Source: Escherichia phage 308Ecol101PP
Reading direction: 5' to 3' (one strand)
Sequence record: OR062945.1
Length of the DNA stretch: 64,000 nucleotides
The translations under genes were made by a program, and so were the position numbers. Position 1 is the first letter of the stretch, and every line of letters begins with the position of its first letter. A model generated the notes under the pieces. It made no database searches. It saw only the letters and a list, made by a program, of their open reading frames with translations, and was not told where the DNA came from. Below, piece after piece: positions 19,784 to 63,899 of this stretch.

Positions 19784-20242
19784 ATGACTATCAATTCAGA
19801 CGTTTTTATCCGCCGCAATAAACTCCGTCGAATCTTTGAAACGGAGTTCCGCAAAATAAATGCCGGTATAAAAGATGCTGCAAAGTCTCTTGGACTACCA
19901 GGCTTTCATATCAAGTATTCTCAACATCTCTTAGATCGTGCCATCCAGAGAGAAATAGATGAGAACTACGTTTTTGAATTATTTCGTAAAGTAAAAAATC
20001 ATGTTAAAGAAGTTGCAGAATTTTTATCAATGCCGGCACGTCCAGATGTTGATGAAGATTTTGTCGAAGGTGTCGAATACCGTCCAGGCCGTTTAGAAAT
20101 AACTGACGGAAATCTTTGGTTAGGACTTACAGTTTGTCGCGAAAATCCAGCATTCAAAATGAAGACTCTTCAATGCAGAATGGCTATTATTAACAGTAAA
20201 CGACTACCAGGAAAAGCTTCTAAAGCAGTGATTAAAATCTAG
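19784..20242 (+). CDS. regB: RegB-like endoribonuclease (tentative)
   Basis: 152 aa (T4 RegB is 153 aa); lies between denV and tk as regB does in T4; promoter cassette 19727; call rests on size, position and partial recall of the sequence. Confidence 0.55.
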   Translation: MTINSDVFIRRNKLRRIFETEFRKINAGIKDAAKSLGLPGFHIKYSQHLLDRAIQREIDENYVFELFRKVKNHVKEVAEFLSMPARPDVDEDFVEGVEYRPGRLEITDGNLWLGLTVCRENPAFKMKTLQCRMAIINSKRLPGKASKAVIKI

Positions 20243-20250
20243 AGGTAAAC

Positions 20251-20793
20251 ATGAGAAAAGCACTACTCGCTGGTCTATTTGCTCTTTCATTATCAGCACA
20301 TAGCTCCGAGCATACTTTTAGTAATGTCCAACTCGATAACTTGAATTATGCTTATCAGTTTGGGGAACAGTTTTCTAAGGACGGAAAATTTAAAACGCAT
20401 GAAAATATGCATAAGAAAGGACTTGGATACATAATGGCCGCAATACTATGGCAGGAATCATCTGCCGGTATTAATCTTAAAGATAAGAAAGGTCACCATG
20501 CGTATGGAATGTTCCAAAATTATCTACCAACAATGAGGGCAAGAATTAACCAGCTTGGTTATAATATGACTGATGCCCAAATTAAGAAAATGCTATCTAA
20601 GCGGTCTAATTCAGCCAGATGGGCTTATATCGAATTTTCTTATTGGTTAAATATACATAATGGGGATATAAGAAAAGCTATATCCTCATATAATGCGGGA
20701 TGGAAGACAAGTGCTGGAAGTAAATATGCTTCTGAAGTCCTAGAAAAGGCTAATTACCTTAAATCAAACAAACTACTGGAAATAAAAGAATGA
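20251..20793 (+). CDS. Secreted lytic-transglycosylase-like (SLT-domain) protein
   Basis: N-terminal signal peptide MRKALLAGLFALSLSAHS; ...AILWQESSAG...AYGMFQ resembles the SLT catalytic E-S ... G-x-x-Q motif. Confidence 0.6.
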   Translation: MRKALLAGLFALSLSAHSSEHTFSNVQLDNLNYAYQFGEQFSKDGKFKTHENMHKKGLGYIMAAILWQESSAGINLKDKKGHHAYGMFQNYLPTMRARINQLGYNMTDAQIKKMLSKRSNSARWAYIEFSYWLNIHNGDIRKAISSYNAGWKTSAGSKYASEVLEKANYLKSNKLLEIKE

Positions 20794-21137
20794 CCAAAAT
20801 GTTGGCTTTAATAGTTGGCTTGGTTTCATTTAACGCTCTTGCTAATACTACATATACTGATGTAACGGAGTATACAAACAGAACAGCGTCTGATTATTGT
20901 GGTAAAAGTCAAGAGTGTAAAGTAGATTTTTCACAAAAATTGTTATATGCGTATAAAGACGGAGAAAAAGATGGGGCGTCTAGTAGGTTCAAGGCGTCTA
21001 CCTTAATTAAAAGATACTATAAAAAATGGCAAATATTAGAATGCTCGGTGGCGGAACCTAAAGATAAGGCAGCATGCAATTCTATGGTGGACCGTCTAGT
21101 TGACTCTTATACTAGAGGACTTGCAGCAAGTGATTAA
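20790..21137 (+). CDS. Secreted small protein
   Basis: Signal peptide MTKMLALIVGLVSFNALA; ATGA overlap. Confidence 0.6.
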   Translation: MTKMLALIVGLVSFNALANTTYTDVTEYTNRTASDYCGKSQECKVDFSQKLLYAYKDGEKDGASSRFKASTLIKRYYKKWQILECSVAEPKDKAACNSMVDRLVDSYTRGLAASD

Positions 21138-21597
21138 AAACTATATCAAGGGCGATATTGTCGCCCTGTTTTCTAAAGGTAATAATATCGCTCATGGGTG
21201 TAATTGTTTTCATACAATGGGCGCCGGCGTGGCAGGACAATTAGCAAAGGCTTATCCAAAAATTCTGGAAGCCGATAAACTTCAAACCGAATTTGGAGAC
21301 GAGTCTAAACTCGGGACTTATTCGGTTTATGAAAAATATTTTAAGACCCATAAAGCTTATTGCTTTAATCTTTATACACAGTTTGAGCCTGGACCTAATT
21401 TTGAGTACTATGCTTTAATGAATTGTATAATAGAATTAAATGAATTCGGAAAGAATAAGATAACAAAGCCTGTACTTTATATGCCAAGAATTGGTGCAGG
21501 TATCGGTGGCGGAAACTGGGATGTCATCGAAGAGATTTTAGATACGTATTCCACTAAACTAGAAATTGTGATTGTTGATTGGGAACCATTATTATGA
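21100..21597 (+). CDS. Macro-domain protein (ADP-ribose binding / hydrolase candidate)
   Basis: GDIVALFSKGNNIAHGCNCFHTMGAGVAGQL and YMPRIGAGIGGGNW resemble macro-domain Gly-rich loops; start uncertain (ATG 21100 overlaps upstream gene; GTG 21130 possible). Confidence 0.6.
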   Translation: MTLILEDLQQVIKNYIKGDIVALFSKGNNIAHGCNCFHTMGAGVAGQLAKAYPKILEADKLQTEFGDESKLGTYSVYEKYFKTHKAYCFNLYTQFEPGPNFEYYALMNCIIELNEFGKNKITKPVLYMPRIGAGIGGGNWDVIEEILDTYSTKLEIVIVDWEPLL

Positions 21598-21806
21598 ATA
21601 TACATTATCCACATCCATATGACCCAAAGAATAAGGCAGTAATTATTCGTCAATGGGAACGCATTTGTCGTACCAAATGTCCAATTAATAGTCCACATGA
21701 TGTAGATAAAGACTACATCGGAACATTCGTTGAATATACCTTTATTGATAAGAAAGGCCGTAAACAACATGTAGAAGAATATTGCTTAAAGGTGTCATGG
21801 CTATGA
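21594..21806 (+). CDS. Hypothetical protein
   Basis: ATGA overlap at 21594. Confidence 0.5.
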   Translation: MNIHYPHPYDPKNKAVIIRQWERICRTKCPINSPHDVDKDYIGTFVEYTFIDKKGRKQHVEEYCLKVSWL

Positions 21807-22009
21807 GTCAAACAAAAATTCTTACAGGTGCTAAATGCGAAAAATGCGAATGGCCTGTAGTTTTTGCTTTATGCAATAACGAAATGGCTTGTGATTTTGA
21901 TTATTGGTGTTACTGTTCGAACAAAGGTTGTAGCAATCATAAAGGTGAAGGGTTTTACTCAGGATTTTACCCTTACCCGGATTTCGTTAAAGAAGGTGAA
22001 CCTAAATGA
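21797..22009 (+). CDS. Cys-rich small protein (possible Zn-binding)
   Basis: CEKCEW...CNNEMACDFDYWCYCSNKGCSNHKG. Confidence 0.5.
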   Translation: MAMSQTKILTGAKCEKCEWPVVFALCNNEMACDFDYWCYCSNKGCSNHKGEGFYSGFYPYPDFVKEGEPK

Positions 22010-22188
22010 AATTAACTAAAGAAGAGAAAGCTAAACTGTTCGAACTTATCCATGACCTATTGGATGAACAAGCAGCCACCAATGCGTATGATGAATATGC
22101 TCCTTTAACAGATGAAGAATATCAAGCATTGTTGGAATCATTTGACAGGAAAGAACAAGAACTTATTGACTACGTGAATTCACTATAA
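22006..22188 (+). CDS. Hypothetical acidic protein
   Basis: ATGA overlap; 60 aa. Confidence 0.5.
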   Translation: MKLTKEEKAKLFELIHDLLDEQAATNAYDEYAPLTDEEYQALLESFDRKEQELIDYVNSL

Positions 22189-22197
22189 GGGACTCTT

Positions 22198-22779
22198 ATG
22201 GCTAGTTTAATTTTTACATATGCCGCTATGAACGCTGGTAAGTCTGCTTCATTACTTACTGCCGCACATAACTATAAAGAACGTGGCATGGGTGTATTAG
22301 TTCTTAAACCGGCTATTGATACTCGCGATTCAAAAGGTGAAATAGTCTCTCGTATTGGTATTCGTCAGGACGCCAATATAATTACAAAAGACATGGATAT
22401 CTTTGAATTCTATAAATGGGCTGCAGCACAAAAGGATATTCATTGTGTATTTGTTGACGAAGCTCAGTTCTTAACTACTGAAAAGGTGTATCAACTTAGT
22501 CGTATTGTTGACGTATACAATGTGCCGGTAATGGCATATGGACTACGAACAGATTTTAAAGGTAATCTATTTGAAGGTTCTCAAGCATTAATGGCTATTG
22601 CCGATAAGCTTGTTGAACTTAAAGGTGTCTGTCATTGTGGTAAAAAGGCCACAATGGTAGCTAGAGTCACGGAAGACGGACTTCCAATTACGGATGGCAG
22701 TCAAATTGAAATTGGTGATACCGATAGATATGTGTCATTATGCCGGAAGCATTGGAATGATTTGACAGGGTTGTTATAA
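22198..22779 (+). CDS. tk: Thymidine kinase
   Basis: MASLIFTYAAMNAGKSASLL P-loop; ...VDEAQFL...CHCGKKATM... typical TK. Confidence 0.95.
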   Translation: MASLIFTYAAMNAGKSASLLTAAHNYKERGMGVLVLKPAIDTRDSKGEIVSRIGIRQDANIITKDMDIFEFYKWAAAQKDIHCVFVDEAQFLTTEKVYQLSRIVDVYNVPVMAYGLRTDFKGNLFEGSQALMAIADKLVELKGVCHCGKKATMVARVTEDGLPITDGSQIEIGDTDRYVSLCRKHWNDLTGLL

Positions 22780-22782
22780 ATA
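22775..22782 (+). promoter_or_regulatory. TATAAATA motif overlapping tk stop (possible late promoter)
   Basis: Exact 8-mer 25 nt upstream of ATG 22807; could be chance in AT-rich DNA. Confidence 0.25.
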
Positions 22783-22806
22783 CTAATATCTAACCAAGAG
22801 GTATAT

Positions 22807-61431: not shown

Positions 61432-61749
61432 ATGAAAACCATCGATTGTAAAGCAGAATTTAAGATTTTTTATCACGGTTCAAGTAGTTCAGCTAACATC
61501 GAAAACATGCTTTGTCCTCCTGAGGAAACAGGAGTTCTGTCTGAAACCGGACGTAAGAAAAACTTGGATCGTGTATTCTTTACTGAAGATATCGGTTTAG
61601 CAAAGATTTATGCAGGACGAGCAGCACGCTCTTATGGAGGTGAACCACGTCTCTATCGAGTAATTTCTCCGGTAGACGTAGTTCAAATGAATGATACTAA
61701 AGGTGCTACAGTTTATCACGCTGAATGGGCATTTTGTGAGGAAATATGA
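61432..61749 (+). CDS. Hypothetical protein
   Basis: Promoter cassette 61377; SD GGAGAA. Confidence 0.6.
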   Translation: MKTIDCKAEFKIFYHGSSSSANIENMLCPPEETGVLSETGRKKNLDRVFFTEDIGLAKIYAGRAARSYGGEPRLYRVISPVDVVQMNDTKGATVYHAEWAFCEEI

Positions 61750-62953: not shown

Positions 62954-63247
62954 ATGAAAAAGTTATCATTGGCAGCAATCTTACTCGCAGTATCATGTGC
63001 ACCAGCTCCAGTTACGGCAGGTTATGATAAAGACCTCTGTGAGTGGTCAATGACTGCAAATCAAGAAGATGTTGAACAACAAATCTTCTCTGATATCATG
63101 AACATCACTAAACGAGACCGTCCTAATATGGTTAATAAAGTTGTTGAACAACTTAAGTCCGGTGGTATCATGCAGTACAATTATGTTTTGTATTGTGACC
63201 CTAATTTCGATAACAAAGATATCGTAACCGAAATCACAGGTGAATAA
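62954..63247 (+). CDS. Lipoprotein
   Basis: MKKLSLAAILLAVSC signal peptide with lipobox; promoter cassette 62895. Confidence 0.6.
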   Translation: MKKLSLAAILLAVSCAPAPVTAGYDKDLCEWSMTANQEDVEQQIFSDIMNITKRDRPNMVNKVVEQLKSGGIMQYNYVLYCDPNFDNKDIVTEITGE

Positions 63248-63248
63248 T

Positions 63249-63899
63249 ATGATTTATTACATGCACAAAAACGCGCCATTTAAATATGGTAAATTTCCTA
63301 ATGCACAATGTTATAATATAACGCCGAATGAAAATAATAACGGTTATCATATTGGTGTAATTTTTGTAATTGTTAAAGATAACGAAATCGTTGCCTGGGC
63401 TGATTTTAAAGGTACAACGTATGATGTTAATCCGGTGCCTTTCACATATTACAATATAATGGATTTGGCATATGATTATAATTGGTTTAATCATGACGCG
63501 TTGGCTCATATTGAAGGTGTAGGATTTGACATCTCTTATTCTAGCTATTCATTATGTCCTATGAGCCGAGCTCACGGTAAAGATGCATCATATCTTTCAT
63601 TTCGGAAACGTGTAAACTTCAAACGTAGTACAGAGTATGTCGGTGGACTCTTTGTTAAAGATAATAAAATAACCCGTATTAGTTATCCTTTAAGTGTAGG
63701 TCAAAAAGATGTTGATGTTGATTTAGACTTAACTGAAAATAACATTAATCATATTGCTTCTGTATATTTTGATATCGATGAAAAAATTGTAGTGTGTGGA
63801 TACGAATTACCACCTGAAGAAAAGGCTGAAGCAATTGAAGTCGAATTAGAAATTTCTGTTGATGACCAAATATTTAATGCATTTATGAATCGAGGTTAA
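63249..63899 (+). CDS. Hypothetical protein (216 aa)
   Basis: ATG 63249 two nt after upstream stop. Confidence 0.65.
   Translation: MIYYMHKNAPFKYGKFPNAQCYNITPNENNNGYHIGVIFVIVKDNEIVAWADFKGTTYDVNPVPFTYYNIMDLAYDYNWFNHDALAHIEGVGFDISYSSYSLCPMSRAHGKDASYLSFRKRVNFKRSTEYVGGLFVKDNKITRISYPLSVGQKDVDVDLDLTENNINHIASVYFDIDEKIVVCGYELPPEEKAEAIEVELEISVDDQIFNAFMNRG

Follow-up and report, generated by a model that had tools for sequence, protein, structure and literature searches.

What does a T-even phage do with a macrodomain of its own, and by which chemistry? The question is raised by a plus-strand gene in a 64,000-nucleotide stretch of Escherichia phage 308Ecol101PP (record OR062945.1; this whole stretch is hereafter called the window), for which the original prediction had proposed a macrodomain protein that erases defensive ADP-ribose marks, e.g., those set by DarT. 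We consider it quite probable that positions 21130-21597 encode the Mosigvirus orthologue of T4 Tk.4/AdfM, a Gln-type hydrolase that would neutralise the DarTG2 system by erasing the marks left by DarT2 on DNA. The original reading is correct in substance, but it is already in the literature: the gene has carried a macro/A1pp label since the annotation of the T4 genome, and a function was assigned to it in 2025.

The macrodomain gene and its T-even neighbourhood

A megablast search with positions 20200-22800 retrieved 657 phage records, the best of which are Escherichia phages of the genus Mosigvirus (98.5-99.3% identical), and by these matches the window is a Mosigvirus, i.e., a JS09/RB69-like T-even phage. 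Several near-identical Mosigvirus records label the gene either 'macro domain protein' or 'phosphatase'. The genes of the window run in the order regB, vs.1, vs, the adfM copy, a tk.3-like gene, small ORFs and tk, matching the order regB-vs.1-vs-tk.4-tk.3-tk.2-tk.1-tk of T4 (Pfam, PHROGs, and the annotation of SA79RD and T4); the features of the locus are collected in Table 1. The stop of vs and the start of adfM overlap by 8 nt (GTGATTAA), and the TGA stop of adfM overlaps the ATG of the tk.3 homologue (ATGA, 21594-21597). Translationally coupled gene blocks of T-even phages typically show such overlaps, and the ATGA overlap suggests that adfM and the tk.3 homologue are translationally coupled within one operon. 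A scan for sigma-70-like promoters between 18.5 and 23.5 kb was uninformative (15 sites against 16.8 expected from shuffles).

Table 1 Features of the adfM locus in the window
Feature	Coordinates	Strand	Evidence or remark
vs (valyl-tRNA synthetase modifier), upstream gene	20790..21137	+	PHROG 1256, 5e-35; annotation
Ten extra in-frame codons from TTG 21100, within the 3' end of vs	21100..21129	+	
GAGGA Shine-Dalgarno, 10 nt 5' of the GTG start	21115..21119	+	window/T4 DNA alignment
adfM / tk.4 CDS, single-domain macrodomain protein	21130..21597	+	155 aa, GTG start, TGA stop
Loop 1 region N19-L38, NIAHGCNCFHTMGAGVAGQL; His22, Asn25 and first Gly-rich ADP-ribose-binding loop	21184..21243	+	
CAG codon of Gln84, aligned with the catalytic lysines K84 of TARG1 and K80 of DarG	21379..21381	+	
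Loop 2 Y117-W130, YMPRIGAGIGGGNW, diphosphate-binding Gly-rich loop	21478..21519	+	alignments to TARG1 and DarG
tk.3 homologue (DUF7202), downstream gene	21594..21806	+	Pfam DUF7202, 1.9e-38; annotated start

The predicted ORF, which spans 21100-21597 and counts 165 codons starting with TTG, is present on the plus strand in the ORF listing, and both of the glycine-rich segments named for it lie within it. While the ORF stands at its full length, the protein of 165 residues does not: the most likely start, and by comparison with related genomes almost certainly the true one, is not TTG 21100 but GTG 21130, giving 155 residues. This GTG has the position at which the CDS starts in near-identical annotated genomes, it yields a CDS of the same length as T4 tk.4 (468 nt), and in the DNA alignment it is homologous to the T4 ATG and preceded by a Shine-Dalgarno sequence that is identical in the window and T4. 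The TTG is not conserved in the same alignment, and an in-frame TAG directly precedes the ATG of T4 tk.4, so that no N-terminal extension is possible in T4. The homologues all start with M-I-x-x-Y-I-K-G-D, and the ten codons upstream of the conserved start are probably untranslated. A terminator-like hairpin at 21149-21167 falls within the CDS, where it encodes the conserved KGDIVALF, and was treated as a by-product of coding.

Pfam, PHROG, PDB profile searches and the predicted fold all agree that the proposed macrodomain is genuine. The Pfam Macro family (PF01661; gathering threshold 22) is matched with 25.4 bits (E=1.5e-5), and the match runs from residue 32 to 146 of the 165-aa ORF and takes in positions 2-117 of the 118 in the profile; PHROG 335 (named 'phosphatase') is matched at 7e-66. 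When a profile of 61 family sequences was compared with the PDB, the matches comprised TARG1 (4e-17), BT1257 (5e-17), SCO6735 (3e-14), Poa1p (2e-13) and the DarG proteins of Mtb (1e-12) and Taq (1e-10). An AlphaFold2 model built from the family alignment (mean pLDDT 96, pTM 0.91) has the three-layer alpha/beta/alpha macro fold, and not the non-macro fold that the original prediction had named as its refutation when asking for structure prediction. The best Foldseek matches of this model in the PDB are TARG1, Poa1p, BT1257, DarG and SCO6735 (probability 1.00, TM 0.7-0.8), and the top 50 contain no natural proteins other than macrodomains (probability 1.00, TM 0.6-0.8); designed OSH55 serine hydrolases also occur among these 50. 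The glycine-rich loops (MGAGVAG and IGAGIGGG) align to those of TARG1 and DarG, the counterparts of the second being PRIGCGLDRLQW in TARG1 and PPLGAGNGGLPW in DarG, and their glycines are present in at least 249 of 250 family members. Taken together, homology and modelling identify the ORF as a genuine macrodomain. Some records and PDB titles carry the labels YmdB or 'RNase III inhibitor', which we rejected, as there was no YmdB-type NCBIfam match.

Orthology to T4 Tk.4 and a proposed role against DarTG2

The window protein aligns to T4 Tk.4 (NP_049723) over 155 residues, 129 of which are identical (83%), with no gaps (BLASTP, E=2e-103). Because this identity is accompanied by synteny and a homologous start, the protein is, as judged by comparative genomics, the syntenic orthologue of T4 Tk.4. 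Both proteins have 155 residues, their genes share neighbours, orientation and the start with its Shine-Dalgarno sequence, and the residues that are invariant in the family are all present in the window copy. The two differ by 26 substitutions in 155 positions, among them Gly (the family norm) in the window against Lys in T4 at residue 127 and Ala against Ser at residue 32, by the start codon (GTG in the window, ATG in T4) and by the overlap with vs, which is 8 nt in the window and 4 nt in T4.

The function of the T4 gene has been approached by genetics. Phage T4 lacking both adfA and adfN was still fully resistant to DarTG2, pointing to an additional anti-DarTG factor (PMC11825919). When T4 transposon mutants were screened genome-wide on a host expressing DarTG2, tk.4 was the single significant conditionally essential gene; its clean deletion rendered T4 sensitive to DarTG2, and it was given the new name adfM, for 'anti-DarT factor macrodomain' (bioRxiv 10.1101/2025.11.20.689424, preprint of 20 November 2025). 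The proposal that the protein erases defensive ADP-ribose, for which DarT had been given as the example, finds its support in this DarTG2-sensitive knockout of the orthologue; the evidence in T4 is genetics only, and the authors of the preprint word the removal of ADP-ribose from DNA as something that 'seems likely' (10.1101/2025.11.20.689424). By analogy, we infer that the window copy acts as the T4 copy does, that its activity is the hydrolysis of thymidine-linked (dT) ADP-ribose and that its chemistry is of the Gln type.

The mechanism that we propose is as follows. AdfM would be made from the same-strand block regB-vs.1-vs-tk.4-tk.3-...-tk, and its macro fold would bind the ADP-ribose that host DarT2 puts on thymidine of single-stranded phage DNA. 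With Gln84, held by Asn25, positioning the distal ribose, a water-initiated reaction would hydrolyse the bond between ribose and thymine, restoring replicable DNA and thereby neutralising the DarTG2 defence.

T-even phages encode ADP-ribosyltransferases, and the substrates of the TARG1 class include protein, DNA and RNA. It is conceivable on these grounds that the protein erases other ADP-ribosylation, i.e., the phage's own Alt, ModA and ModB marks or marks on RNA (e.g., in CmdTAC-type defences), and that the effect on DarTG2 is secondary; SCO6735 of Streptomyces coelicolor, a cellular macrodomain discussed below, also removes ADP-ribose from protein (PMC9411070). We regard this as highly improbable, given that DarTG2 was the only defence for which the reported T4 screens picked out tk.4 (10.1101/2025.11.20.689424) and that no ADP-ribosyltransferase (ART) gene adjoins the adfM copy in the window (ORF list, Pfam, PHROGs and annotation). 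A 105-aa ORF at 61432-61749 looked ART-like by eye, but it had no Pfam match and was rejected.

The window holds a second anti-DarT gene, an AdfA ORF at 63240-63899 (Pfam PF23813, 402 bits) whose product is 67% identical to T4 gp61.2. By homology, the phage stacks at least two anti-DarT genes, AdfM and AdfA, within 64 kb. The presence of both in a coliphage of the RB69/JS09 group bears on predicting how such phages plate on clinical E. coli strains that carry DarTG.

A glutamine at the position of the catalytic lysine

The residue that sets the protein apart from DarG and TARG1 is Gln84. In the HMM alignment Gln84 corresponds to K84 and Gly126 to D125 of TARG1, and Gln84 falls on the lysine of the 'PTK' motif shared by Taq and Mtb DarG and PhiKZ gp104 (MAFFT; hhalign probability 98.6%, E=1e-15). 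Asn25 aligns to N22 of DarG and N23 of PhiKZ AdfM, with His22 three residues before it (i-3). Conservation was counted in an alignment of 250 family members gathered from two large protein searches: Gln84, Tyr82 and Asp49 are found in all 250, Asn25, Asn80, G33, G122 and G124 in 249, and His22 in 244. None of the 250 has a lysine at position 84 or 32; position 32, which is aligned to the lysine of the DarG MGKG motif, is Ala, Ser or Gly, and positions 88-89 are Gly-Pro. In DarG, the K80A mutant is inactive (PMC5179494). The exchange of lysine for glutamine implies that inhibitor or mutagenesis work modelled on K80 of DarG would be misdirected here, and designates Q84 and N25 as the key residues.

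A precedent for such a site is provided by SCO6735, which lacks the catalytic residues of TARG1 and DarG and has Gln85 at that position (PMC9411070). Activity is abolished in its variants Q85A and Q85E and nearly so in N27S; Asn27, the equivalent of DarG N22, locks Gln85, and His24 lies three residues before Asn27 (PMC9411070). The enzyme cleaves ADP-ribose from the thymidine of DNA, its turnover being high compared with DarG and TARG1, it protects cells from DarT, and a water-initiated mechanism has been proposed for it (PMC9411070). We propose, by transitivity through the alignments to TARG1 and DarG, that Q84, N25 and H22 of the window protein are equivalent to Q85, N27 and H24 of SCO6735. 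By analogy, T-even AdfM is most likely a Gln-type enzyme like SCO6735 and not a Lys-type enzyme like DarG, TARG1 or PhiKZ AdfM.

The absence of the catalytic lysine of DarG and TARG1 could also be taken as a sign that the macrodomain is a non-catalytic or mixed inhibitor, which mainly binds DarT2 or shields ADP-ribosylated DNA. The catalytically dead Q85A variant of SCO6735 strongly inhibits DarT by direct interaction, so that protection need not be purely hydrolytic (PMC9411070), and AdfA and AdfB were described as counter-defences from escape mutants, not as erasers (PMC11825919). However, H22, N25, D49, N80, Y82 and Q84 are near-absolutely conserved in the 250 members, including bacterial ones that have no recurrent DarT neighbour, which speaks for a conserved catalytic pocket and against an interface specific for the toxin, and the K80A variant of the DarG macrodomain alone did not inhibit DarT (PMC5179494). 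We thus judge an inhibitor of this kind to be very unlikely.

Family distribution and comparison with known macrodomains

The family is large, with 5,113 clusters (50% identity) at E≤1e-3 and 1,507 at E≤1e-10. By tblastn, a homologue is present in 2,834 of 50,697 phage records, the hosts of which include Escherichia, Klebsiella, Salmonella, Pseudomonas, Vibrio and Acinetobacter, and bacterial relatives were found at 222 loci (including Rhodobacterales, Verrucomicrobia, Planctomycetes, Desulfobacterales and Bacteroidota). Cellular neighbourhoods were analysed at 80 loci, from which 393 neighbour ORFs were clustered and 126 immediate neighbours scanned with Pfam. Only clade-specific housekeeping synteny was seen, and no recurrent DarT/DUF4433 gene was found beside the cellular homologues among the 25 most frequent of 72 neighbour families. 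A few bacterial loci adjoin NAD-salvage genes (NAPRTase, NrtR/NUDIX), and distant phage homologues adjoin genes for NAMPT and PRPP synthetase. The breadth of the family and its occasional link to NAD salvage may mean that its substrate range is wider than DarT2 marks.

These neighbours are also what might be expected of a protein of small-molecule ADP-ribose metabolism, i.e., a Poa1p-like ADP-ribose-1''-phosphate phosphatase or an O-acetyl-ADP-ribose deacetylase serving NAD/ADP-ribose housekeeping or recycling. T4 tk.4 has the historical annotation 'phosphatase; contains A1pp phosphatase motif', and PHROG 335 likewise bears the name 'phosphatase'. Poa1p, the yeast ADP-ribose-1''-phosphate phosphatase with its small-molecule substrate, is among the best structural and profile matches (PDB 6lfq/6lfr; TMq 0.80, ~25% identical) and has the HxCNC..[S/T]xGxG loop in common with the window protein (HGCNCFHTMGAG in the window protein, HSCNCNGSWGGG in Poa1p; the loop residues H23 and S30 are mutated in PDB 6lfs and 6lft). 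However, pairwise alignment places a serine of Poa1p, not a glutamine, at the position of Gln84, and a housekeeping role leaves unexplained the DarTG2-specific phenotype of the T4 knockout, in which the gene is otherwise dispensable (10.1101/2025.11.20.689424). Activity on small molecules and on dT-ADP-ribose is not mutually exclusive; as the explanation of the gene, small-molecule metabolism appears unlikely to us, and we retain the erasure of DarT2 marks from DNA.

Human TARG1/OARD1 (PDB 4j5r) is, like Poa1p, among the best structural and profile matches, and differs from the window protein by having K84 and D125 where the latter has Gln84 and Gly126. DarG (PDB 5m31, 5m3i) has the same fold (TM ~0.75), the conserved asparagine (N22) and the glycine-rich loops, and it too counters DarT2, yet its catalytic Lys80 is replaced by glutamine in the window protein. 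The DarG model NF048014 (cutoff 250) gives the window protein 28.8 bits, T4 Tk.4 30.3 bits and PhiKZ gp104 137.8 bits, and the match of the window protein is confined to positions 4-146 of the 338 in the profile. The two-domain architecture of DarG was not found: the protein lacks a C-terminal domain for binding DarT, and its gene is flanked by vs and tk.3 and not by darT. The bacterial relatives, too, are stand-alone genes that resemble those of SCO6735 and TARG1 and not toxin-antitoxin modules, which speaks against an origin as an 'orphan DarG antitoxin'; by architecture and profile scores, the T-even AdfM family is not a captured or DarG-derived antitoxin.

The name AdfM was given independently to gp104 of phage PhiKZ, which in vitro strips a TNTC oligonucleotide of the ADP-ribose added by DarT2 and whose N23A variant shows reduced removal (PMC13309987). 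Both are single phage macrodomains directed against DarTG2, with a conserved asparagine (N23 in gp104, N25 here), and the Ala, Ser or Gly at residue 32 of the Tk.4 family is also like the active PhiKZ enzyme. However, BLAST finds only a local match of 23 residues between the two, and gp104 is DarG-like and keeps the 'PTK' lysine. Their DarG scores and catalytic residues differ, which places the two proteins named AdfM in different macro subfamilies. We lean, if only slightly, towards the view that T-even AdfM is a Gln-type thymidine-ADP-ribose glycohydrolase recruited from stand-alone cellular macrodomains and that PhiKZ AdfM is of the Lys type, i.e., that phages have arrived at two independent and mechanistically distinct solutions to DarT2, which go by one name at present. 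What this adds to the literature is modest, namely the invariant glutamine that replaces the catalytic lysine seen in DarG and a possible recruitment independent of the DarG-like AdfM of PhiKZ.

SCO6735 (PDB 5e3b) is also among the closest known systems, and the window protein is matched to it at 1.4e-4 as a single protein and at 3e-14 as a profile, with a structural TM of 0.71-0.74. Both are stand-alone single macrodomains of the TARG1/ALC1-like class, with glutamine at the catalytic-lysine position together with the asparagine and the histidine. The two are only ~22% identical, and SCO6735 is cellular, whereas the Tk.4-type copy is viral; Lys34 and Lys89, which position DNA in SCO6735, are absent from the window protein, by a mapping of K34 and K89 that is indirect.

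Two anti-DarT genes and their neighbours

Besides adfM, the tk.4 orthologue that encodes the macrodomain protein, we found an orthologue of AdfA (anti-DarT factor A, T4 gp61.2), whose ORF shows 67% identity to the T4 protein and likely has its true start at the ATG at 63249; the window therefore holds two anti-DarT genes. The 105-aa ORF that adjoins dmd contains a FYHGS...TG...FFTED pattern resembling, by eye, an ADP-ribosyltransferase, and a comparison with Pfam at E≤0.1 returned no match.

Features located in the window
Feature	Coordinates	Strand	Remarks
Vs.6 homologue, 120 aa	18664-19026	+	Glycyl-radical domain PF01228, 67 bits
Vs.1 homologue, 180 aa	20251-20793	+	Only hypothetical in reference genome annotation
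GC-rich hairpin, 8-bp stem, then T-run	21149-21167	+	AGGGCGAT-ATT-GTCGCCCT GTTTTCT
adfM codon 127	21508-21510		Diphosphate-binding loop; Gly
105-aa ORF, RB69ORF040c-like	61432-61749	+	Adjoins dmd
spackle	62954-63247		Immediately upstream of AdfA ORF
AdfA orthologue (T4 gp61.2)	63240-63899	+	Pfam PF23813, 402 bits

Homologues of Vs.6 and Vs.1

The Vs.6 homologue, with the motif RVSGYAVRF in its glycyl-radical domain, looks like a phage-encoded "spare part" protein of the GrcA/YfiD type. The Vs.1 homologue begins with a signal-peptide-like segment, and its match to the SLT lytic-transglycosylase domain fell below threshold (18.8 bits vs a GA of 21.3).

Relatives of the macrodomain protein

Distant macrodomain homologues in Acinetobacter and Vibrio phages (three records) adjoin genes for nicotinamide phosphoribosyltransferase or ribose-phosphate pyrophosphokinase, and a few bacterial homologues of the window protein are adjoined by NAPRTase and NrtR/NUDIX genes; such neighbours hint that part of the macrodomain family is tied to NAD/ADP-ribose salvage. 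A protein of 1,314 aa aligns with the macrodomain query at 23 separate places, the best of which spans query residues 20-69; it seems to consist of partial macro-loop repeats arranged in tandem.

The adfM hairpin and loop residue 127

The hairpin lies 20 nt into the adfM coding sequence, and T4 keeps its stem. Probably the conserved KGDIVALF codons give rise to it as a side effect, but it could affect translation initiation of adfM or the stability of its mRNA. In the diphosphate-binding loop, T4 Tk.4 carries Lys at position 127, whereas the window protein has Gly, as do 235 of the 250 aligned Tk.4-type family members; thus it is T4 Tk.4, the one tested, that is atypical at this position.
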